Shown in pieces: positions 3,818 to 63,800 of a DNA stretch of 64,000 bases (its first letter is position 1; each line of letters begins with the position of its first letter). The translations under genes were made by a program, and so were the position numbers. Source of the stretch: an uncultured Candidatus Saccharibacteria bacterium (lineage in GTDB: Bacteria; Patescibacteriota; CPR2_A; CAYFQT01); the NCBI GenBank assembly GCA_964345445.1, contig CAYFQT010000026.1:5685-69684 (forward strand). Direction: 5' to 3'. The notes below the pieces were generated by a model that did no database searches, had not been told where the DNA came from, and saw nothing but the letters and a program-made list of their open reading frames with translations.

Positions 3818-3889
3818 GGCCTCGTGACCGAGTGGTTTAGGTAGCGGTCTGCAAAACCGCGTACGGCGGTTCAAATCCGCCCGAGGCCT
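3818..3889 (+). tRNA. tRNA-Cys (anticodon GCA)
   Basis: Acceptor GGCCTCG/CGAGGCC with discriminator U (Cys-typical). Anticodon loop ctGCAaa, T-arm GGCGGTTCAAATCCGCC. Confidence 0.8.
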
Positions 3890-3894
3890 CTGAC

Positions 3895-3990
3895 ACTGGC
3901 AGGCGGGCCTGCCCGCTAATGCAAGCATAGCGTTGCAGGCGGGCAAAACCGAGTACAGCATGCGAATCCGCTCCAGGCCTCCGTAATTAA
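3895..3990 (+). pseudogene. Degenerate tRNA-Cys-like 3' half (tRNA remnant) fused to a GC-rich dispersed motif
   Basis: gcaaaaccgagtacagcatgcgaatccgctccaggcctcc is about 70% identical to the 3' half of the upstream tRNA-Cys but does not form a cloverleaf. Confidence 0.4.
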
Positions 3991-6432: not shown

Positions 6433-6464
6433 GGCAGAAATAACTAATAACTAAGGAGTGACAT

Positions 6465-14237: not shown

Positions 14238-14537
14238 ATGGCATTAACTAAGAAGCAAATTGAACATATTGCTATGTTGGCTCGTTTAGGTTTGACAGAA
14301 AAAGAAAAGAAGAGGTTTGAAAGACAACTTTCTTCTGTTTTGGACTATGTAAATCAACTTAATAAAGTAAATACAAAAAATGTCCAGCCAATTGCCCAAA
14401 TAACAGGACTTAAAAATGTAATGGAGGAGGATAAAGTAAAAAGTGATAAGGAGAAGATATCAAAAGATAAATTGTTGAAGAATGCGCCAATGCAGGAAGA
14501 AGGGTGTGTGAAAGTGAAAGCGGTATTAGAAGAGTAA
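14238..14537 (+). CDS. gatC: Asp/Glu-tRNA(Asn/Gln) amidotransferase subunit C
   Basis: MALTKKQIEHIAMLARLGLTEKEKKRFERQLSSVLDYVNQL is a canonical GatC N-terminus. Promoter-like TTGTCA-17-TATACT lies at 14152-14187. Confidence 0.85.
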   Translation: MALTKKQIEHIAMLARLGLTEKEKKRFERQLSSVLDYVNQLNKVNTKNVQPIAQITGLKNVMEEDKVKSDKEKISKDKLLKNAPMQEEGCVKVKAVLEE

Positions 14538-14596
14538 AGGTTACTATGAGTTACTAGAAGTTACTAATGGTTACTAAGAAAGTTACTAGAGGTTAT

Positions 14597-14992
14597 ATGC
14601 AAGAGGAAGCTTATAAAAAATTATTAGTTTGGAAAAATATTTGTGAGTTAAGAAGACTGATTTATAAAATAACTGAGAGATTTGCTAAGACTCATCCAAG
14701 ATTAGCTGGACAAATGAGAGACGCTACAAGATCAGCAAAACAGAATTTTATAGAAGGATATAAACGAGATTCAATTGGATTATTTATTCAATCTGTTAAA
14801 GTTAGCCGAGGCTCTTTAGGAGAATTGGATGGTGATATTGATGATTGTTATGAAGATAATTTAATTACAAAATTGGAGTATACTAATTTAAGTAATTTGA
14901 GTAAAAAATCTTTATACTTAATTGATAGATATATAGATTCGTTATATAAAATGCAAAAAGAAAAAACTTGGAGAGTAAGGTGGCAAAAATAA
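14597..14992 (+). CDS. four-helix-bundle protein (TIGR02436-like), inserted between gatC and gatA
   Basis: ...LLVWKNICELRRLIYKITERFAKTHPRLAGQMRDATRSAKQNFIEGY is characteristic of this family. ATG at 14597 has a better RBS (AGAGG) than the ORF-track start at 14567. Inverted heptamer arrays flank the gene. Confidence 0.65.
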   Translation: MQEEAYKKLLVWKNICELRRLIYKITERFAKTHPRLAGQMRDATRSAKQNFIEGYKRDSIGLFIQSVKVSRGSLGELDGDIDDCYEDNLITKLEYTNLSNLSKKSLYLIDRYIDSLYKMQKEKTWRVRWQK

Positions 14993-15059
14993 TTTTGCAA
15001 CCTTTAGTAACTTATAGCAACTATTAGCAACTATTAGTAACTTATATTTACTAATTAAA

Positions 15060-16646
15060 ATGAATTTAGAAAATCTTACAATTTTACAAGCTCATAAGAA
15101 GCTGAAAAATAAAGAGACTTCATCGGTTGAATTAACCAAAGCAGTTTTGGATAGAATTAAAAAGACTGATAATAAGATTAATGCTTTTATTACAGTCACA
15201 GAAAAAGAAGCATTAAAACAAGCAGAAGAGGCTGACAAACGGATTAAAACTGGAAAGATGCTGAGTAAACTTGATGGAATTCCAGTGGCTCTAAAAGACA
15301 ATATGGCAACAGAAGGAATTTTAACAACAGCTGGTTCTAAGATTTTAGAGAATTTTAAACCGCCTTATGATGCTACAGTTGTTAAAAAAATAAAAGATGC
15401 TGGTGCTATTATTATTGGCAAAACCAATATGGATGAGTTTGCCATGGGTTCTTCTTGTGAAACTTCTTATTTTGGTCCTACGAAAAATCCTTGGGATACA
15501 TCCCGAGTTCCTGGTGGCTCTTCAGGAGGTTCTGCAGCGGCTGTTTCAGCTTCACAATGCATTTATGCCCTGGGTTCTGATACCGGTGGTTCTATTCGCC
15601 AACCAGCCTCTTTTTGTGGTTGTGTAGGCTTAAAACCTACTTATGGTCGAGTATCTCGATATGGTCTTTTGGCTATGGCCTCTTCTTTGGATCAAATTGG
15701 ACCACTTGTAAAAAATACAGAAGATGCAGCAGCAGTTTTGGAGGCTATTTCTGGATATGATGGGGAAGATAGCACAAGCGTAGACAAAAAGTTCAAAGTT
15801 CAAAGTTCAAAGTTCAAAGTTTTAAAAAATGTAAAAATTGGGATTGCTAAGGAGTATTTTAGGGAAGGTTTAGATAAAAAAGTTGAAGATAAGATAAAAT
15901 CAGCGATTAAAGTTTTAGAGTCAAGGGGAGCCAAGATTGAAAATGTTAGCTTACCTCATACTCAATATACCTTAGCTTGCTATTATATAATTATGCCTTC
16001 AGAAGCTTCCACTAATTTAGCCAGATATGATGGAATAAAATATGGATATTCAACCACTCAAATCTCAAATCTCAACTCTCAAAACTTATTAGATGTCTAT
16101 CTACAATCAAGGGCAGAAGGTTTTGGAGATGAGGTAAAAAGGCGAATAATGTTAGGAACTCATACATTATCTTCAGGTTATTATGATCAATATTACTTAA
16201 AAGCTGCTAAAGTTAGAACAAAAATAAAAGAAGATTTTGACAAAGCATTTTCTAAAGTGGATGTTTTAATAACTCCTACTTCACCAACTGTTGCTTTTCC
16301 ACTCGGGGAAAAGTTAGATGATCCATTGACTATGTATTTATCGGATATTTATACAGTACCGGTTAATTTAGCCGGAGTGCCGGCAATTTCTGTTCCTTGT
16401 GGACTAGTTAAAAAGGTTACTAAAAGTTACCAAAAGGATACTAAAAAGTTACTAAAGAGAGTTGATAAAAATACTTTTAGTAACAATTTGCAACCCCTAG
16501 TAACCCCTAGTAGCTCATTATTACCTGTAGGTTTACAAATAATAGGTCCTCAGTGGGGAGAAGAGAAAATTCTACAAACAGCTTATATCTATGAACAGGC
16601 AACAAAAGATGAGGGGTGGAGGAAATTAAAGCCAAGTATAAAGTAA
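15060..16646 (+). CDS. gatA: Glu-tRNA(Gln) amidotransferase subunit A, with in-frame repeat insertions
   Basis: Amidase signature [11 protein letters not shown], plus [10 protein letters not shown] and the catalytic Ser/Lys context. Three low-complexity inserts are encoded by short DNA repeats. Confidence 0.9.
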
Positions 16647-16746
16647 TAGTAATAAGTAATAAGGAATCAAGAATAAAGGGTTAGGAATTAGGAATAGGGA
16701 ATAAGTAGTACTCCTTATAACTAATAACGGATAACTAGGAGCACAT

Positions 16747-18598: not shown

Positions 18599-20131
18599 AT
18601 GGAATATCAGACAATAATTGGATTAGAAATCCATGTACAATTGAAGACAAAATCTAAAATGTTCTGCAGATGTGATAATTATTCAGTGGATGCCAAGCCA
18701 AATATTAATACCTGCCCAGTATGTATGGGAATGCCTGGAACTCTTCCAGTGATAAACCAGCAAGCTATAGAATGGGCAGAAAAGACCGCCTTGGCTTTAA
18801 ATTGTAAAATTTCCTCATTCACTAAATTTGATCGAAAAAGCTATTTCTATCCGGACTTACCCAAAGGATATCAGATATCCCAATATGATATGCCTTTAGC
18901 GGTAGGAGGATGGTTGGATATTGATGTGCCAGAGTCAAAAGTTCAAAGTTCAAAGTCTAAAGTCCAAAATAAGATGTATACTAGAAGAATTAAAATCACT
19001 AGGTTGCATATGGAAGAAGATGCAGCAAAGTTAATTCATTCCGTAAAGGGACGTGGTCCCTACGGGACTTTACGTCCAGAGGTGGCAGATTATAGTTTGG
19101 TTGATTTTAACCGTGCCGGAACTCCACTTATGGAAATTGTTACAGAACCTGACCTAAGCTCCCCACTTGAAGCAAAGATTTTTATGCAGGAGTTAAGAAG
19201 TATTTTGCGATATTTAGATGTTTCTGAAGCTGATATGGAGGAGGGAAATTTGAGATGTGATGCTAATATATCATTAAGTCCAAAGTCCAAAATCCAAAGT
19301 CCAAAGTTGGGGGAGAAGGTGGAAATTAAAAATATAAACTCTTTTAAGGCTGTAGAGAAAGCTTTAGCTTACGAAGTGGAAAGGCAAAAGGATATTTTAG
19401 AAAGTGGGGACAAGATAGTTCAAGAAACTAGAGGCTGGATGGAAGATAAAGGCAGAACAATCTCCCAGCGAGGCAAAGAAGAAGCAGAAGACTATCGTTA
19501 TTTTCCCGAACCAGACTTGCCACCATTGGAATTTGAAAAAAAACAAGTAAAAGAAATTCAATCGAAATTACCTGAATTGCCTAACCAGCGCCAAAGAAGA
19601 TTTGTTAAAGAATATGACCTGTCAATGTATGATGCTCAGGTTTTAACTTCTGAGAAAGAAACATCTGTCTTTTTTGAAGACACAGTTCAAAAAATATCCA
19701 AATTAAATCACGAAAAGGCCAAGAGGGCGTGCAACTGGATAACAACGGAATTGCAATATTTACTTAAGGATAAAGATATAGATATTAGCAAATGCAAAAT
19801 TAAACCAAAGGATTTAGCCGAGCTTATTGGATTAATTGACAAAGGAGAAATCTCAGGGAAAATAGCCAAAGATGTATTCGTAGAAATGTTTAATTCCGGA
19901 AAAGCCCCTTCGGAAATTGTGAGTAAAAAAGGATTAAGACAAGTTAGTGATGAAGGAGAATTAGAGAAAATTATAGATAAAATTATATCTCAAAATAAAC
20001 AAGCAGTTTCTGATTATAAAGAAGGAAAGGAAAATGCATTTAAGTTTTTAGTAGGGCAGACAATGGCTTCTACCCGCGGTCAAGCCAATCCTCAGATGGT
20101 TAATAAGATATTGAAGGAAAAATTGAAATAA
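18599..20131 (+). CDS. gatB: Asp/Glu-tRNA amidotransferase subunit B, with two in-frame repeat insertions
   Basis: MEYQTIIGLEIHVQLKTKSKMFC.C...GMPGTLP and DFNRAGTPLMEIVTEPD match GatB. It carries a C-terminal GatB/YqeY domain. Confidence 0.9.
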   Translation: MEYQTIIGLEIHVQLKTKSKMFCRCDNYSVDAKPNINTCPVCMGMPGTLPVINQQAIEWAEKTALALNCKISSFTKFDRKSYFYPDLPKGYQISQYDMPLAVGGWLDIDVPESKVQSSKSKVQNKMYTRRIKITRLHMEEDAAKLIHSVKGRGPYGTLRPEVADYSLVDFNRAGTPLMEIVTEPDLSSPLEAKIFMQELRSILRYLDVSEADMEEGNLRCDANISLSPKSKIQSPKLGEKVEIKNINSFKAVEKALAYEVERQKDILESGDKIVQETRGWMEDKGRTISQRGKEEAEDYRYFPEPDLPPLEFEKKQVKEIQSKLPELPNQRQRRFVKEYDLSMYDAQVLTSEKETSVFFEDTVQKISKLNHEKAKRACNWITTELQYLLKDKDIDISKCKIKPKDLAELIGLIDKGEISGKIAKDVFVEMFNSGKAPSEIVSKKGLRQVSDEGELEKIIDKIISQNKQAVSDYKEGKENAFKFLVGQTMASTRGQANPQMVNKILKEKLK

Positions 20132-20457
20132 TTCGAAGAATATTGAGAATTACTAATGAACAATTGCTAATTTCTAATCAAATCCCAATGACTAATAAAG
20201 AAACAAAATTCTAAATCCGAAATTCTAAATACTAAATCCTAAATCCCAACGGGATCCCTTCGGGACAATATCAAATGACCAAAATGCTACCACAGCCCCA
20301 CCCAACCACCCTTTTATTGTATAGATTATATAACAAAACAATATAAGTTTAGAACATTGGAAAATTTGAATTTTGAATTTATTTAGGATTTAGAAATTAG
20401 ATATTAGAAATTTTATAAGATAAGTTAATTGTGTTATATTAAAACCAAGGAAAAATA

Positions 20458-21099
20458 ATGCGAAGAAAAAGAAAAGCAAAAGTTACAATAGAAGAAGATG
20501 AAGAAGTTACAACGGGTTGGTCCAAAGTCCAGAAATATTTGGAAGAGAAGAATATCAATTCTTTTCTTTTAGCTGTTTTAGAAGCTGATAAATTATTAGC
20601 CAAGGCATTAAAAGATAAAGGTTATCCTGGCAAGACCACCCAGGAGAAGATTGGAGCAGCCAAGGAAAAATTTACCAATATCAATTTTCTTCTTGGTGCA
20701 AGAGATATACGAGATAAGATTATTAATAAAATAGATTATAATCTTTCTTCTTTGGATTTAGAAGATGCTATTTCTGCCTATAGGCAAGCCATAATTGATT
20801 TAGGAGAAGAATCAGAGAAATTACCTATTTCTGAAAGATTATTACTTCTTTTTCATTATTATTATCCTTCTAAAAAACAAGCACTTAAAAAAATTATTAT
20901 TTATATAGTTTTATTTTTTACAATAGTTTGGTTTTTGTCTCATACTTCACTAGGACAAAATATTGTTAATATTGTAGTAGGAGTAACCAATATTATTTTC
21001 AGTTGGGTTTTAGCAATAGTTTTGTTGGTTGTGGGAGTTATAATTACGGTGATTGCAAGTCTTTTGTATTTTGAGAAAAGAAGGAAGGAAAGAAGATGA
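20458..21099 (+). CDS. hypothetical membrane protein
   Basis: Charged N-terminus, then two to three TM segments (IIIYIVLFFTIVWFL..., IVLLVVGVIITVIASLLYF). Confidence 0.4.
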   Translation: MRRKRKAKVTIEEDEEVTTGWSKVQKYLEEKNINSFLLAVLEADKLLAKALKDKGYPGKTTQEKIGAAKEKFTNINFLLGARDIRDKIINKIDYNLSSLDLEDAISAYRQAIIDLGEESEKLPISERLLLLFHYYYPSKKQALKKIIIYIVLFFTIVWFLSHTSLGQNIVNIVVGVTNIIFSWVLAIVLLVVGVIITVIASLLYFEKRRKERR

Positions 21100-21258
21100 T
21101 GTAAAAATTCTAAATCCGAAATCCTAAACAATATCTAAATTCCAATGTTCAAAATTCTAAACATTATATTTGTTTTGGTCATTTGGATTTAGATATTAGG
21201 ATTTGTTTAGAAATTAGATATTAGAAATTAGGATTTTAATTTAAAGGGGTGAACAAAT

Positions 21259-32786: not shown

Positions 32787-33965
32787 ATGATTCAAACAAA
32801 ATTTATGGCTGCTATCAATCAAATTTGTGATGAAAAGGACTTACCAAAAGATGTTGTAATTTCTACTGTAGAGGCAGCTTTAGCGGCTGCTTATAGAAAA
32901 GATTATGGAAAAAAGAATCAGGAAGTTGAAGTAAAAATTAATGAAAAAACAGGTAATGTTTCAGTATTTGTCATTAAAGAAGTAGTAGATGAGGTAGAAG
33001 ATCCTTTTATTCAAATTTCTTTATCTGAGGCTAAGAAAAATAAAAAAAATGTCAAAATAGAGGATAAAATAAAAATTGAACAGACCCCATCCGATTATGG
33101 AAGAATAGCTGCTCAGACAGCTAAACAGGTTATTATTCAAAGAATCCGAGAGGCTGAGCGTGATTTGATATACAATGAATATAAAGATAAAGAAAATACT
33201 CTTTTAACTGGTATGGTTCAAAGAATGGAAGGTAGAAATGTTATAGTAGATATTGGAAGAACATACGGGATAATTTTTCCTTCTGAGCAGATTCCTGGCG
33301 AAAAATATTATATCGGTGAAAGAATTAAAGTTTATGTTTTAGGTGTAGAACAATCTAATAAAGGTTCACAAATTACTTTATCTCGTGCTCATCCTGGATT
33401 TATTAGAAGATTATTTGAATTGGAAGTTCCTGAAATTTTAGCTGGTGCAGTAGAGATAAAATCTATTGCTCGAGAGGCAGGATCTCGCTCTAAAGTAGCC
33501 GTAACTTCTTCTCGCGAAGGGGTTGATCCAGTAGGTTCTTGTGTAGGTCAGAGAGGAACTAGAGCCCAGGCCATTATAGCTGAATTAGGCAATGAGAAAG
33601 TTGATATAGTTTTATGGGACTCTGATCTAACTAAATATATAGCCAATGCTCTATCACCAGCTAAAGTTTCTGATATAAAAATTAATAAACAGAAAAAAGA
33701 AGCTAAGATAATTGTACCTGCTGATCAACTTTCTTTGGCTATCGGAAGAGAAGGGCAGAATGTTCGTTTGGCTGCTAGACTTACAGGTTGGAAGATTGAT
33801 ATCAAGGGAGCTGAGGAGGAAGCTGCAACCGCCCCGAAAGAAACAGAGCCGGCAAAGACGCAAAGAGATTCTAAAGATGTAAAAAATCAAAAGAAAGAAC
33901 CGAAAGAGCCTACAAGTAAAAAGAAAGAAGAATCTAAGGAGACTAAAGAAGAGGGAAAGAAATAA
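32787..33965 (+). CDS. nusA: transcription termination/antitermination factor NusA with K/E-rich C-terminal tail
   Basis: N-terminal domain, S1 domain and KH1/KH2 (GxxG: IGREGQNVRLA). 392 aa. Confidence 0.9.
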   Translation: MIQTKFMAAINQICDEKDLPKDVVISTVEAALAAAYRKDYGKKNQEVEVKINEKTGNVSVFVIKEVVDEVEDPFIQISLSEAKKNKKNVKIEDKIKIEQTPSDYGRIAAQTAKQVIIQRIREAERDLIYNEYKDKENTLLTGMVQRMEGRNVIVDIGRTYGIIFPSEQIPGEKYYIGERIKVYVLGVEQSNKGSQITLSRAHPGFIRRLFELEVPEILAGAVEIKSIAREAGSRSKVAVTSSREGVDPVGSCVGQRGTRAQAIIAELGNEKVDIVLWDSDLTKYIANALSPAKVSDIKINKQKKEAKIIVPADQLSLAIGREGQNVRLAARLTGWKIDIKGAEEEAATAPKETEPAKTQRDSKDVKNQKKEPKEPTSKKKEESKETKEEGKK

Positions 33966-33991
33966 CTAATAACTAATTAAGGGGGTTTAAT

Positions 33992-37978: not shown

Positions 37979-38286
37979 TAAAATCAAAAATCAAAATTCA
38001 AAAATCAAAATGACAGATTAAAGTTTAAATTCAAGTAAAATTTTACATTTTGATATGTAATTTTGTCCCAAAGATGTCCAAGCTTGCTTGGTTACATCTT
38101 AGAGATCCCGTTAATTCAAAATCGTTTTATATTGTAGAGAAACGTTTATTGAGATACCCGTTTGGACATAAAGGGATCACTTAAAATTTACAAAATCAAA
38201 GATTTTGAATTTTTCGGGATACTTTACATTTTAAATTTTCATTTATTATATCTTTATCATATTTATTATTTGAAAGGAGAGTTTTT

Positions 38287-44265: not shown

Positions 44266-44516
44266 CTTGTGTTAAGTCAACCTAAATTATATCAAAAATG
44301 TGAGAATGTTCAAGATGTTGGAAAAAAGACACGAATGTCACACGAATAAGATAGCACGAGTTTAACACGAATCTAGAAAGTTGTTCAAGTTGTTCAAATT
44401 GTTCTATCCTCCACCCTCGATAAACTCGGAGTCAATTGTTCAATTGGTCTCTGGTCTTGTTTTATTTGTAATTAATTCGTAACTAATGATATACTAAAGA
44501 AAGGAGGGAGTTTGTT

Positions 44517-45707: not shown

Positions 45708-45846
45708 ACGGTTAGGGTTACGGTTACGAAGTTGGTATCGAAATTCGGTTAAGGTTACGTGAATTTTTTGTAGACGAACTTCGTAACCCTCAGACGATAC
45801 GCACTTCCTAACCGTAACCGAAAGACGTAACCTTAATATTAATACT

Positions 45847-49506: not shown

Positions 49507-49596
49507 GCGGGCGTGGCGGAATTTGGAAGACGCGCGTGGCTTAGGACCACGTTCCCATTTATGGGATTGGAGGTTCAAGTCCTCCCGCCCGCACCA
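49507..49596 (+). tRNA. tRNA-Leu (anticodon TAG), type II, with encoded CCA
   Basis: Acceptor GCGGGCG/CGCCCGC + A + CCA. Anticodon stem CGTGG/CCACG with loop ctTAGga, variable hairpin CCCAT-tt-ATGGG, T-loop TTCAAGT. Confidence 0.85.
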
Positions 49597-49644
49597 TTGG
49601 GATACCCAAAAGGCATAGAGGTTCAAATCCTCTCACCGGCACCA
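49597..49644 (+). other. tRNA 3' fragment (variable-arm hairpin + T-arm + acceptor 3' strand + CCA) abutting tRNA-Leu
   Basis: TTGGG-ata-CCCAA, then AGAGGTTCAAATCCTCT, then CACCGGC-A-CCA. No matching 5' acceptor strand was found. A terminator hairpin GACC..GGTC + T7 follows at 49663-49686. Confidence 0.4.
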
Positions 49645-49727
49645 TAAAAATATAATTTAAAATGACCTAAGCGGTCTTTTTTTATTCCTAAAATCCTTGA
49701 CAAATAACCTATTTTAGGATATAATTA

Positions 49728-49867
49728 AGTAATTACATTTGAAAATATAATCAAAGATTACTTAATTACGCTTAAGCTGTGCGAAAGCACTAATTAGATA
49801 ATTACATTTGAAAATATAATCAAAAATTACTTAATTACGCTGGATTAAAATGTAAGCACTAATTGGG
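49728..49867. repeat. tandem direct repeat of about 70 bp (2 copies) containing TAATTAC/GTAATTA motifs
   Basis: TAATTACATTTGAAAATATAATCAAAGATTACTTAATTACGC...AGCACTAATT recurs at 49800 with one mismatch in the first 42 bp. Confidence 0.7.
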
Positions 49868-50035
49868 TAATTAAGTTCAAATTGTTCAATCGCTCGTTTC
49901 ACTTGTTGTTCAAAATGTTAACCAATAACATCAGCGCAAATCCGCGGCATAAAAATCCGCGTAAATCAGCTTTTTGTAATATCAGCGTAATCTGTGTTAT
50001 ACAAAAATAAACATCAAAAATAAAGGAAAAACAAA

Positions 50036-50932: not shown

Positions 50933-51094
50933 AAAATATTTTTTAATTTTAATAATTTAAATAGAGAGCAGATATTGCTGCTCTTTTTGTAATTTTACTA
51001 ATTACTAATAACTTATTACTCATAACTAACTATCATCTTGATAGCTGATTTTGAAAGTGGTAGAATAGAATTCAGTTAGGAATATTTTTATATT

Positions 51095-52396: not shown

Positions 52397-52724
52397 TGAC
52401 CAATTACTAATTCTTAATCAAATCCTAATGATAAATAAAAATGTCAAATGACTAATTTTAAAATACCAAATAAAATCCAAATGGCTAATGACAAAATATT
52501 TAGAAATTTAATAATTTATTTATTGATTTGGCATTTGGATTTTGATATTAGACATTAATTAGACTTACTTTGACTTGCCGAAGGCGAGGCAGGCATTAGG
52601 TCAACCTGTGACTAATGCAAGCATAGTGTTGCAGGCGGGTTAGAAATTAGAAATTTTACATATATGCTATCAATTATTATTTGTATAAAGTTTAGCGTTA
52701 TTTTGTGTTTAAAAGGAGGGAGAT

Positions 52725-56646: not shown

Positions 56647-57283
56647 TTTAAAAATTTCAGGGTCAATTCGGTGAGATTTTGTTTATATATGTTGAAATAA
56701 GCTGAAATCTTGCAGTCTTGACCCTCTTTTTTATATTAATTCTATTTACAAATATACGCGATCGCGGTATATTGTTAATGATTATTAATAAGAAATGTTA
56801 TTTTTGTTGCCTTTGTTACTTTTGTTACATCTGTTATTTCACCCCTTGCATTGCTTTTTCTTTTTGTGTATAGTAAAATATGTTATAATAAAGATAGTTC
56901 AAATTGTTCAATCGTTTGTTTTACTCACTTATTCAGAATGTTCAAATTGTTGTCATGAATTTCTCTCGAATTATATCGAATTAAATCCCGAATTTGAACA
57001 CGAATAGAATATTCGAGTATTATTTGTGTAGATATTCGCATACTATTGGAGAATGATTCGTGAAATTTCCTTAATTGACATTATTTTTAGATATATGTTA
57101 GACTAAAAAAGGTGGGTTTTATTCTAAGAGACAAGTAATTGAATATTTTTATATAACCTCGTTTTTTCTTTGATTATAAGGGAAGAGAAGGAGGGATATT
57201 TTCTATTTGTTAGTTAGATTAATATTAATATTGAAAAGTAAAGTGTAACCAATTTATAAAACAATAAATGAGGGAAATAAATT

Positions 57284-60200: not shown

Positions 60201-60658
60201 CAGGAGATCCTTTTGATCAAAAGACTACTGTGGGTTACATTTATATGATGAAACTTCACCATTTAGTGGAGGATAAAGTTCATGCTCGATCAATAGGTCC
60301 TTATTCTTTGGTTACTCAGCAACCATTAGGAGGAAAAGCTCAATTTGGCGGTCAGCGTTTTGGAGAAATGGAAGTTTGGGCATTAGAAGCTTATGGAGTA
60401 GCTAATACTTTACAAGAAATGTTAACTGTAAAATCTGATGATGTTGTGGGGAGGTCTAAAACTTATGAAGCAATTATAAAAGGTGAGAAGATTAAAAAAC
60501 CTCATACTCCAGAATCATTTAATGTTTTAGTAAAAGAGCTACAGAGTTTAGGTTTAAAGGTAGATTTAATTTCTAAATTAGAAGATAGGAAAAAAGAAAC
60601 AAAAGAAGTTGTAGAAGTATCAAAAAAGATTTCTGAGAAGCTGGGAGTTAAGAAGTAA
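57284..60658 (+). CDS. rpoB: DNA-directed RNA polymerase subunit beta
   Basis: Canonical rpoB blocks (rifampicin cluster region [42 protein letters not shown]). 1124 aa. Confidence 0.95.
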
Positions 60659-60829
60659 GCAGCTTCGTCTGTTCAGATTGTTTAATCTTTCGTTTCACTC
60701 ACTTGTTCAAATTGTTCAAATTGAACAAGCGACTCCGATAAATATCGGAGGAGCGATTGAACAAACGAAGTCTCGCTGAGCGAGACGAAGTGATTGAACA
60801 TATTAACGTAACTAAAAGGAGCAAATTGA

Positions 60830-63800
60830 ATGGAAAGTATAATAAAAACTACAGATTTTGATGCTATAAGAATTTCTATAGCCTCACCAGAGGAGATTCT
60901 TTCCTGGTCGAATGGAGAAGTTTTAAAACCAGAGACAATCAATTATAGAACTCAAAAACCAGAAAAAGATGGACTTTTCTGTGAAAGAATTTTTGGTCCA
61001 ACCAAAGATTGGGAATGTTATTGTGGAAAATATAAACGTATTCGATATAAAGGTATTATTTGTGATAAATGTGGTGTAGAAGTAACTCGTTCTATTGTTA
61101 GGCGAGAAAGAATGGGGCATATAAAATTAGCCACCCCTGTTTCTCATATTTGGTACTTAAGGAGTACTCCTTCAAGAATAGGTCTTCTTTTGGATATATC
61201 CCAGAGGGATTTAGAGAGGGTGATTTATTTTGCTAATTTTATTATTATTTCTGTAGATGATAAAGCTAAGCAAAAATTAATTGCTGATTTAAAAAAGGAA
61301 TTTCAAAAAAAATCTGATGATAAAAAAGAAGAACTTAATAAAAAATTACAACAAATTAAAAAAGAAAGAACAGCAGGTCTTAAATCAAAAAAAGCTAAAG
61401 ATAAAAAAGAAATAATTAAGAAATATGATCAAGAGATTTCAGCATTTAATCAACAATTAGATATAGAACTGGAAGAGTTAGAAAGTGCAAAAGAAATTGC
61501 TCTTGAAGAATTAAATTATATTCAACCTTTGAAAATTATTTCTGAAAATCAGTATAGAGAATGGAAACAAAAATATGGGAAAGTATTTTATGCTGGAATT
61601 GGAACAGAAGCTATTTATGAAATTGCTAAAAAAATTGATTTACAGAAATTGTCTTCTGATATTAAAAAGAAGGCAAATGAATTCTCTGGTCAGAAAAGAA
61701 GAAAGGCTTTAACTCGTCTGAGATTAGTTTCTAGTTTTATAAAAGCTAAAATTAAACCGGAATGGATGTTACCAACTGTTATTCCTGTTATTCCTCCTGA
61801 TCTTCGTCCTATGGTTCAATTAGATGGAGGAAGATTTGCCACCTCAGATTTAAATGATCTTTATCGTAGAGTAATTAATAGAAATAATCGCCTAAAAAGA
61901 TTAATTAATATAGGAGCTCCAGAAGTAATCTGTCGAAATGAAAAAAGAATGTTACAAGAAGCAGTAGATGCTCTGATTGATAATGAAGCTCGACGAGGAA
62001 AAGCAATAACTGTAAGCATCAGTAGAAGAAAACCCAAGTCTTTATCCGATATATTAAGAGGTAAGCAAGGAAGATTTAGACAAAATCTCCTAGGTAAGAG
62101 GGTAGATTATTCAGGTAGATCAGTTATTGTAATAGGTCCAGACCTAAAATTACATCAGTGTGGACTCCCTAAGAAGATGGCTTTAGAATTGTTCAAGCCT
62201 TTTGTAATCAGTAGATTAATTCAAGAAGGATATGCTCATAATGTTAAAATTGCTGGTCGTATGATAGAAAAAGCACTACCTGAGGTTTGGGATATGTTAG
62301 AAAAAGTAATTTCCCAATATTATGTTCTTTTAAATCGAGCTCCTACTTTACATAGATTGGGAATTCAAGCTTTCCAGCCTGTATTAATTGAAGGAGATGC
62401 TATACAGATTCATCCTTTAGTTTGTGCAGCATTTAATGCTGATTTTGATGGAGATCAAATGGCAGTGCATGTGCCACTTTCAATTTTAGCTCAAAAAGAA
62501 GCAAAAGAAGTTATGCTTTCTTCAAAAAATCTCCTAAAACCTGGTAGTGGTGACCCAGTTGTTATTCCTACGCAGGATATGATTTTAGGATGTTATTATA
62601 TTACTTTAATTCGACAAGGTACCCCTGGAGAAGGCAAGATATTTTCCAATCCTGATGAAGCTATTTTAGCTTATCAAATAGGTGATTTACATATTCAAGC
62701 TAAGATTAAAGTAAAAGTTAAAAATAAAATACTAGAAACTACTGTAGGAAGAATCATTTTTAATGAGGCATTGCCTTCTGGAATAGAATTTCAAAATAAA
62801 GTTATGGATAATAAGGCTTTGAAGGAATTAATAGGAGAATGTTTCCGCAGGTTAGGTACTTTAAAAACAGCTAAATTTGTAGATAGAATTAAAGAAATAG
62901 GTTTTGATTTTGCCACTAAATCAGGAATGAGTATTTCTATAGATGATATCCAAATACCTTCCAAAAAGCAAGAATTGATTAAAGATACTGAACAAAAGGG
63001 CCAGGAAATTAGAACTCAATATAGAAAAGGATTAATTACTGATTATGAAAGATATACCAAAATTGTAGAATTGTGGACTCGGGTCAAAGATGAGATAGAG
63101 GATGAGATGATGGAAGGATTGAATAAATATGGTTCTATATTTTCTATGGTTTCTTCTGGAGCTCGAGGAAATAGAAAACAGATAGTACAGCTAGGAGGGA
63201 TGAAAGGATTAGTAGTAAACCCTGCCGGCCAAACTATTGAACTTCCTATTAAAGCTAATTTTAGAGAAGGTTTTTCAGTATTGGAATATTTTATTTCTAC
63301 TCACGGAGCTCGCAAAGGAAAATCAGATACTGCTTTAAAAACCTCTGATTCAGGCTATCTAACTCGCAGGTTAGTAGATGTAGCTCAAGATATAATTGTT
63401 TCTCAAGAAGATTGTGGTGACCATGAAGGTATTTCTATAACTCGGCAAGAGAGTAAAGAATTAGGTTTACCTTTTAGTGATCTTATTGTTGGTAGATTCA
63501 CGACGGAAAATATAATAAATCCAAAAAATAAAAAAATTTTTATAAAAGCCAACTGTGAGATTACTGAAGATTTAGCTTTTGAAATAGAAAATTCAGAAAT
63601 ACAATCTGTTAATGTTCGATCTGTAATTTCTTGCAGGAGTTCCTGGGGAGTTTGTCAAAAATGTTATGGGAGAGATCTAGGTCGAGGTAAAGTGGTAGAT
63701 TTAGGAGAAGCAGTGGGAGTGATAGCTGCACAATCAATTGGAGAGCCAGGAACCCAGTTAACTATGCGGACATTTCACACTGGAGGAATAGCTGAAGAAG

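Follow-up and report, generated by a model that had tools for sequence, protein, structure and literature searches.

The DNA analysed here (the window, 64,000 nucleotides, nt) belongs to an uncultured Candidatus Saccharibacteria bacterium (assembly GCA_964345445.1, contig CAYFQT010000026.1, positions 5,685 to 69,684 of the forward strand). It has a G+C content of 32.8%, and nearly all of its genes lie on the + strand. The encoded proteins are ordinary housekeeping ones: PBP1A, TyrS, RecG, RsmD-like and ComEA-like proteins, an EamA transporter, trigger factor, ClpP, RpoB, RpoC, GatCAB, DnaE, LigA, NusA and a ClpC-like protein. Directly upstream of rpoB are two open reading frames (ORFs) which had been taken for rplJ and rplL; they are not these genes, and neither gives a significant Pfam match. 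The start codon of rpoC is the ATG at 60830, so that the rpoB-rpoC spacer measures 171 nt. Our subject is a GTTCAA motif that recurs upstream of rpoB, in this spacer, upstream of the EamA/DMT transporter gene and in the divergent region between the PBP1A gene and tyrS, and in which the original prediction saw either a dispersed repeat family or the binding site of a global regulator. We find that it is a genuine non-coding feature and not a conserved operator, and we consider it likely that it represents a family of small dispersed repeats that are non-coding, intergenic and restricted to this species, of a fast-turnover class behaving like BOX, ERIC and Correia elements.

The repeated unit is about 54 nt long and consists of degenerate 9-nt words, GTTCAAATT, surrounding a non-repetitive core (TCGTTTCACTCAC). 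The 18-mer GTTCAAATTGTTCAATCG is present exactly at 49875-49892 and 56897-56914, and with 2-3 mismatches at 44392, 60671, 60705 and 60714; 0.16 matches were expected, and the observed total of 6 was reached in 0/100 shuffles. A hidden Markov model (HMM) built from the three long copies and searched against the window with nhmmer recovers exactly three full units of about 54 nt at 46-51 bits, all on the + strand. Copy A lies upstream of the EamA/DMT transporter gene (49875..49927, 46.2 bits), copy B opens a variable block of about 179 nt upstream of rpoB (56897..56950, 49.8 bits) and copy C forms the left arm of a hairpin in the rpoB-rpoC spacer (60671..60725, 51.0 bits). The model additionally recovers one inverted partial copy (60709-60764) and a short array at 44381-44402, the latter with 9.1 bits and over its word part only. 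The claim of a motif family at several sites is thus borne out, in the form of three full units, an inverted partial copy and a word array.

The short array, on the + strand of the PBP1A/tyrS divergent region (44381..44443), reads TTGTTCAAG TTGTTCAAA TTGTTCTAT at 44381-44409, followed by TTGTTCAA at 44436. It adjoins three CACGAAT words, which had also been predicted and which we located at 44330, 44341 and 44366 (44330..44372, + strand); the same word recurs in the rpoB leader block at 56999, with a reverse copy at 57056. Tandem Repeats Finder (TRF) assigns a period of 9 to 3.0 copies at 44378-44404 and to 2.3 copies at 60703-60723. A heptamer unit is absent from the GTTCAA family, the heptamer signal of this genome coming from other families. 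The copy number of the arrays is unchanged in two contigs, L081 (99.75% identical to the window) and L205 (100%), which come from the same population and therefore offer a weak test.

Over 53 nt, core included, the copies are 62-85% identical to one another, with copies B and C at 85%; the left edge of the unit is sharply defined, and the three copies have unrelated flanks. One could argue that the sites have nothing to do with each other, each having arisen by replication slippage of an AT-rich word, and that their likeness is convergent or a matter of chance and low complexity. The genome, at its low G+C content, is indeed rich in short-period arrays, and slippage-prone repeats of 5-11 nt, heptamers especially, are known in prokaryotes (PMC4679880, citing Mrazek 2007). 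However, two exact 18-mers and an identity of this order that includes the core cannot be convergent, and the shuffles yielded 0.16 matches against the 6 observed. As a general account slippage is very improbable: it is refuted for the three full units and possible only for the short array at 44381.

The motif is largely restricted to non-coding DNA. The 8-mer TTGTTCAA occurs 14 times, with 5.6 expected, and its density is 0.83/kb in intergenic regions versus 0.08/kb in coding sequence (about 10-fold); 8/10 intergenic occurrences are on the + strand. It is therefore neither equally frequent in genes nor randomly oriented. The degenerate copies that had been placed inside recG do not exceed chance level (nhmmer E 3.5 and 7.3). 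With the covariance models of Rfam 15 only tRNAs reach the gathering score and the motif sites have no match at E up to 1, and a known RNA family or riboswitch was rejected. A phage or mobile-element origin was sought by scanning viral contigs with a 17-nt pattern; it returned chance matches of seed length (10-16 bits versus 46-51 for true copies), and the pattern is too loose to be informative.

In the rpoB-rpoC spacer, copy C is joined to a right arm (60726..60800, + strand) made of inverted partial copies of the unit (GAGCGATTGAACAA, GTGATTGAACA) and two inner palindromes. All three palindromes predicted for this spacer are present, namely TTGTTCAA-A-TTGAACAA (60712-60728), CTCCGATAAATATCGGAG (60733-60750) and GTCTCGC-TGA-GCGAGAC (60770-60786). 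The region 60656-60815 folds with -52.9 kcal/mol (z -5.37), a stability attained in 0/200 shuffles, and forms a hairpin of about 130 nt (palindrome 60679-60800), in which over 30 base pairs follow one another almost without a break and which encloses two inner hairpins. Copies A and B each consist of a left arm alone and do not fold significantly (z -0.33 and -0.39, respectively), and the 44381 array site folds no better than shuffles. Many other intergenic elements of the window also fold significantly. There is no + strand terminator-like site in the spacer or the leaders, the sole match in the spacer being on the - strand (60786-60770), and the hairpin is not followed by a U-tract on the + strand, and we rejected a terminator or attenuator in the spacer on this ground. 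Since the site lies between rpoB and rpoC with no + strand terminator, copy C is likely co-transcribed with both genes, as predicted from its position.

We compared the window with what related DNA could be found. In a one-genome-per-species GTDB set the nearest RpoB is that of a Patescibacteria single-cell genome (65% identity), and a large protein collection contains one close relative, with identities of 90% for RpoB, 84% for TyrS and 73% for GatA. This relative was compared through three syntenic pieces, L082, L206 and L208, about 66 kb in total. The sole return of the metagenome scan was L081, a 9-kb contig which carries the window onward through rpoC-rpsL-rpsG-fusA; L205 is a short contig. 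Look-ups of the exact EamA, dCTP deaminase and GatA proteins found no record.

Upstream of rpoB, a first flank is 87% identical between the two genomes (alignment z 27.7) and comprises a terminator belonging to the gene before, a promoter-like site that bears a palindrome, and an extended -10. The region from a second promoter-like site (P2, below) to the start codon is 78% identical (z 18.7). Between these two conserved promoter-like regions lies the variable block (56894..57072, + strand), composed of the GTTCAA unit and then CGAAT / ATTCG word arrays, and its alignment with L082 9655-9791 is at shuffle level (z -0.5). The comparison with relatives that the original prediction had proposed therefore speaks against a conserved operator, as the motif block is unalignable between conserved promoter flanks (z 19-28). 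The rpoB-rpoC spacers of the two genomes are equally unalignable (z -0.9). Because the 4-fold degenerate sites of rpoB are still 61.5% identical, yet these blocks align at random, the leader block and the spacer have been replaced, or have changed much faster than neutral point substitution allows. Other intergenic regions are conserved, with z values of 18.7 for rpsG-fusA, 8.1 downstream of clpP and 6.0 for EamA-tig.

The GTTCAA family is specific to this species. The region upstream of the PBP1A gene in the relative keeps the promoter and contains no GTTCAA or CACGAAT words. Tandem GTTCAA pairs are absent from L082, L206 and L207 of the relative and from 81 more distant rpoB loci, and none was seen by eye in the intergenic regions of L208. 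The long rpoB-rpoC spacer (158 nt in L082) is a gain in this genus, because it measures 3-78 nt in five other Patescibacteria loci, L084 (RpoB 73%) and four more distant ones. In L082, the rpoB leader block and the rpoB-rpoC spacer have an element of their own in common, beginning with ATAATAAAAAATAGTAAATAGT; it shows 22 identical bases at the 5' end and about 63% identity over the aligned columns, and both elements fold (z -3.7 in the leader and -2.3 in the spacer). Since neighbouring regions have families in common around rpsL, too, and around the 213-residue gene at 20458-21099, local copying or gene conversion is the simplest explanation for such a paralogous pair around rpoB.

The rpoB leader downstream of P2 is itself well conserved (57105-57283 versus L082 9820-10000) and includes GTGGGTTTTATT, TATAACCTCGTTTTT and AAGGAGGGAnATTTTCTATTTGT, as well as GGAGGG, which resembles a Shine-Dalgarno sequence and lies some 95 nt ahead of the rpoB start. 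The segment could be a conserved leader structure or a small upstream ORF.

Regarding the position of the motif, promoter-like matches overall are as frequent in the window as in shuffles (68 in each), and because of this we judged placement only on strong or conserved matches. Copy A lies about 150 nt downstream of the sole 12/12 match, TTGACA-17-TATAAT (49697-49725), at about +143 to +196. Copy B begins 8 nt after the extended -10 TGTTATAAT (56881..56889, + strand) of a putative promoter, P1, which is conserved in L082. It occupies +1 to +54 of P1 and ends about 125 nt before a second putative promoter, P2 (TTGACA-18-TAGACT with TG, 57075..57104, + strand), which is conserved and adjoins the variable block on its downstream side; relative to P2 the copy extends from about -214 to -160. 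The 44381 array is found some 60-120 nt upstream (about -121 to -59) of the tyrS start implied by TTGTAA-18-TATACT (44466-44495), and copy C is intercistronic. There is no promoter geometry common to the motif sites. The description of the motif as promoter-proximal holds loosely, whereas a consistent position does not, as it differs at every site.

Two related candidates were discarded. No correctly spaced -35/-10 pair was seen on inspection within the unit, on either strand, and a promoter inside it was therefore rejected. A GTTCAA at 44308 was not accepted as a repeat copy, since its reverse complement is the -35 hexamer TTGAAC of a promoter-like site of the PBP1A gene (44286..44313, - strand), where the relative has TTGAAA.

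These positions bear on the proposal that the motif, as 9-bp direct GTTCAAA repeats, is the site of a lineage-specific DNA-binding regulator co-regulating rpoB, rpoC, tyrS/PBP1A and the EamA transporter. The strong confinement of the motif to non-coding DNA with one favoured orientation, and the arrangement of its words as 2-3 tandem copies, would suit such a site, as would an array at 44432-44447, whose centre is some 63 nt upstream of where tyrS transcription is inferred to start, and the abutment of copy B on the rpoB extended -10. CtsR recognises heptad repeats, and certain response regulators and LexA variants bind direct repeats. The CtsR box is GGTCAAA-N3-GGTCAAA, and LexA motifs are of the GTTC-N-GTTC or TGTTC-N4-GAACA type; like these operators, the motif repeats a word resembling GTTCAAA, directly or inverted, close to promoters. 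However, a spacing of 9 fits none of these boxes, the motif is not upstream of clpP or clpC in the window, no SOS-type genes follow it, and its position relative to the promoter is inconsistent. By inspection, the boxes of DnaA (TTATCCACA), the parS half-site (GTTTCAC), CtsR and LexA resemble it in part, and all were rejected for their unsuitable spacing or context and for the lack of dnaA, clp or SOS genes downstream. The conserved unit is 54 nt long and includes non-word sequence, which fits a copied element and not an operator, and many other word families in the genome behave alike. No candidate regulator gene was found next to any motif site. Above all, a global regulator site is unlikely because the closest relative lacks the motif at the corresponding promoters (those of rpoB and PBP1A, which are conserved) as well as in its roughly 66 kb as a whole. 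We thus keep the dispersed repeat family of the original prediction, with its 54-nt unit, core and sharp borders, and judge the regulator improbable.

Between the two hexamers of another promoter-like site upstream of rpoB, TTTACA-17-TATATT, sits a palindrome, ATATACGCGATCGCGGTATAT (56745-56782), which the relative has retained and which makes a better candidate for an operator than the GTTCAA motif does. Other GCGATCGC-centred palindromes, with flanks CACAAAA / TTTGTGAC, constitute a small dispersed family (5314, 31471 and 39339).

A different kind of function could be considered at the RNA level, with the unit serving as a module that couples rpoB and rpoC expression: the leader and spacer modules would pair, or bind one trans-acting RNA or protein, and would undergo concerted evolution in each species. 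Each of the two species has an element of its own that is common to the rpoB leader and the spacer (identity 85% over 53 nt here and about 63% in L082), and all full copies are sense-oriented, in leaders or spacers. Moreover, the leader and EamA copies can pair with the right arm of the spacer (-32.6 and -34.9 kcal/mol, respectively). This pairing potential is, however, automatic from paralogy, and the local hairpin is both more stable (-37.4 kcal/mol for pairing with the local arm) and kinetically favoured. The sense strand has no excess of G-U pairs or stability; across 18 intergenic elements, fold energies and G-U counts display no consistent strand asymmetry that would indicate RNA-specific selection. 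Families are also shared around non-regulatory genes (rpsL and the 213-residue ORF), where local copying explains them equally, the tyrS array is upstream of its promoter and the EamA copy has no link to RNA polymerase. We consider such a module unlikely. Its more specific form, in which rpoB is bracketed in both known species of the genus by paralogous modules, alike within a genome and unrelated between the two, whose concerted evolution is under selection and which act as a functional pair, either a long-range leader-spacer RNA bridge or a shared trans-factor target setting the beta:beta-prime ratio, is slightly less probable still. If it were true, this genus would offer a streamlined Candidate Phyla Radiation (CPR) genome whose rpoB-rpoC-rpsL-rpsG spacers were colonised by fast-evolving hairpin modules of 7-9-nt words that were then put to use.

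The GTTCAA family has to be seen against the rest of the intergenic DNA. A survey of every intergenic region of the window shows degenerate words of 7-10 nt in tandem in most of them, the word differing from region to region. Examples are TTAGTAACT at 14994, TAGGAAT at 16647, TTCTAAATCC at 20205, AAATCAA at 37979, GGTTACG and its complement at 45708, TTACTAA at 50995 and TTTGTTAC at 56803. Self-matches of 5-mers in intergenic DNA peak at period 7 (11.4/kb versus 3.2/kb in coding sequence), and TRF reports many intergenic arrays of period 7 to 10. Many arrays are followed by an inverted counterpart, which results in long hairpins (z -2 to -5).

Several of these families are dispersed. The TTCTAAAT hairpin family is present at 20132-20457 and 21100-21258 and in both regions flanking rpsL. 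The rpoC-rpsL and rpsL-rpsG spacers (L081 4730-4893 and 5305-5454, reverse strand) each carry a hairpin element of about 150 nt, with 87% identity between the two over 151 nt. The elements that the relative has in these spacers are unrelated, and in L084 the spacers measure 71 and 9 nt. Further families link 5161/40626/31312 and 2750/52397, and a AATGACCAATTA...TAATCAAAT family follows gatB and tig here and tyrS and rpoC in the relative. Copy A comes directly after a 69-nt tandem repeat (2.2 copies, 49722-49873) that shares four bases (49722-49725) with the -10 of the strongest promoter match of the region. This repeat matches the intergenic region downstream of the PBP1A gene in the relative, a non-orthologous location, in opposite orientation and with 84% identity over 121 nt. 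Because many intergenic regions hold arrays and several families are dispersed, the GTTCAA family is one among several and not a special signal.

Our favoured explanation, a family of small dispersed repeats with fast turnover, would then operate as follows. The unit has been copied into a few intergenic regions, that is, into the leaders of rpoB and of the EamA gene and into the rpoB-rpoC spacer, and tyrS has a short array upstream of it; the copying could have occurred by duplication, gene conversion or transposition. The elements turn over quickly, as seen from the unrelated ones at orthologous sites of the relative and by families present in both genomes at differing sites. The copies would be co-transcribed with the flanking genes, and any effect would be exerted at the RNA level and be confined to the two-armed rpoB-rpoC copy. 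There, the hairpin would probably act, if at all, as an intercistronic stem-loop on processing or stability: it could be cut by an enzyme of the RNase III type, or it could block decay and so separate the fates of the rpoB and rpoC mRNAs. Such effects have been described for Correia and ERIC elements (PMC2229807) and put forward for BOX elements (PMC3049150). The single-armed copies in the leaders of rpoB and the EamA gene are half-elements and probably inert.

Several observations weigh against this explanation. A purely selfish or neutral model predicts neither the sense orientation of all full copies nor, in both species, the species-specific paralogous pair in the regions flanking rpoB, unless spread is mainly local. 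At both rpoB-flanking sites the relative holds a different element and not an empty site. No transposase, RAYT or integrase domain was found among the proteins of the window (64 kb), and the copies have no shared flanking target-site duplication, so that mobility in the strict sense is hypothetical. The inverted partner arm exists only at the spacer copy, and equal fold energies on the two strands point to a DNA-level inverted repeat rather than to a selected RNA structure. Finally, the copy counts refer to the approximately 69 kb over which the source species is sampled.

Arrays of heptamers are also present within essential genes. In gatA (15788-15821), a perfect array of 4.9 AAAGTTC units encodes 14 residues in-frame; its word is GTTCAAA, as in the repeat family, but with period 7, and the GatA stretch is a native variable loop that has a 7-residue period in the relative too. 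In gatB, CCAAAGT x5.7 and AAGTCCA x4.6 (18929-18968 and 19276-19307) give in-frame K/S/Q-rich stretches. The 3' part of gatA (16409-16516) contains a 36-residue insertion, missing from the relative and from most homologues, that is coded by GTTACT / TAGTAAC-type arrays resembling the intergenic arrays at 14994-15053 just upstream of gatA. This looks like an in-frame entry of an intergenic repeat into a gene, comparable to the Rickettsia palindromic elements (RPE).

Two further regions have genes flanked by inverted arrays. Between gatC and gatA (14535-15059) lies a gene for a 23S-rRNA-intervening-sequence protein (PF05635, 14567-14992), bracketed by inverted GTTACTA / TAGTAAC arrays that are 81% complementary; in the relative the gatC-gatA gap is 40 nt and lacks this gene. 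The whole looks like an inserted gene cassette. The 213-residue ORF (20458-21099, within 20132-21258) belongs to no Pfam family, has a weak LPXTG-anchor match and is flanked by inverted copies of the TTCTAAAT word (arms 20148-20195 and 21189-21236). Its orthologous upstream region in the relative (L208 15459-15642) keeps both ends and lacks about 150 nt of the middle arrays.

Close to copy A, tRNA-Leu is followed by a partial copy of the tRNA 3' half, and elsewhere tRNA-Cys is followed by a degenerate tRNA-like copy (49507-49650; 3818-3990; 52560-52640); a 28-nt segment, CTAATGCAAGCATAGYGTTGCAGGCGGG, is common to 3916 and 52612. A partial copy follows tRNA-Leu in the relative as well, and after it come genes that the window lacks. 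The tRNA-Leu region looks like an integration hot spot adjoining copy A. Lastly, TAACT-type heptamers (AATAACT, TAGTAACT, ATAACTA) stand directly upstream of Shine-Dalgarno sites at 6439-6464, 14994-15059, 16711-16746, 33961-33977 and 50995-51031.

Patescibacteria are usually regarded as having compact, repeat-poor genomes. The present analysis documents abundant and rapidly replaced intergenic repeat families in one of their members, and it removes a false lead, as the conspicuous motif upstream of the RNA polymerase genes is a copied repeat and not a regulon signal. Intergenic repeats of this kind place long hairpins in core operons and would mislead motif-based regulon prediction in uncultivated lineages. 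They also probably fragment metagenome assemblies; the public collections that we searched hold only small pieces of this genome. In the literature we found no description of such elements in Patescibacteria.

Small interspersed intergenic repeats are known from other bacteria, RPE among them, and the STRR of cyanobacteria are comparable short tandem repeats. The GTTCAA family shares with the arrays of TAACTGA heptamers, long simple sequence repeats (LSSR) and STRR the head-to-tail arrangement of words of 5-11 nt, the intergenic location, often just before start codons, the sense orientation and the sporadic phylogenetic spread. In Beggiatoaceae, Cyanobacteria and Bacteroidetes, start codons are preceded by TAACTGA arrays (MacGregor 2015, PMC4679880), and LSSR were described by Mrazek 2007, as cited in PMC4679880. 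The intergenic period-7 signal of the window and the TAACT-type words before several Shine-Dalgarno sites recall these arrays. In contrast to TAACTGA arrays and LSSR, the GTTCAA family has a period of 9 and 2-3 words per array, inside a 54-nt unit that is copied whole, and many different words coexist in this genome instead of one dominant heptamer.

In having several dispersed short non-coding copies (three full ones plus fragments in 64 kb), the family is similar to transposable elements of the miniature inverted-repeat type (MITEs). Correia/NEMIS elements of Neisseria and ERIC/IRU of enterobacteria are transcribed intergenic sequences of about 100-200 nt, imperfectly palindromic, that form a long stem-loop; such a palindrome and fold are seen in the spacer copy only. 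Their terminal inverted repeats are defined, they duplicate a TA target and they number tens to hundreds of copies, features that were not observed for the GTTCAA family in the DNA covered. Correia elements are reported to affect flanking mRNAs through RNase III, and ERIC through RNase E or stability (reviewed in PMC2229807), and these RNA effects provide a working model for the rpoB-rpoC spacer copy. The BOX, RUP and SPRITE elements of Streptococcus pneumoniae are small non-coding interspersed repeats found mostly in one species and its nearest relative; they are expected to affect co-transcribed genes, and Croucher et al. 2011 (PMC3049150) regarded them as parasites and not as dedicated regulatory sites. 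The GTTCAA family resembles them in its modularity, variable number of sub-units, location in intergenic regions and operon spacers and extensive secondary structure, and differs in having no sequence similarity to them, in being built of degenerate 9-nt words and in having one two-armed copy. Altogether, elements of this kind are already known; the GTTCAA sequence family itself is new and restricted to a single species.

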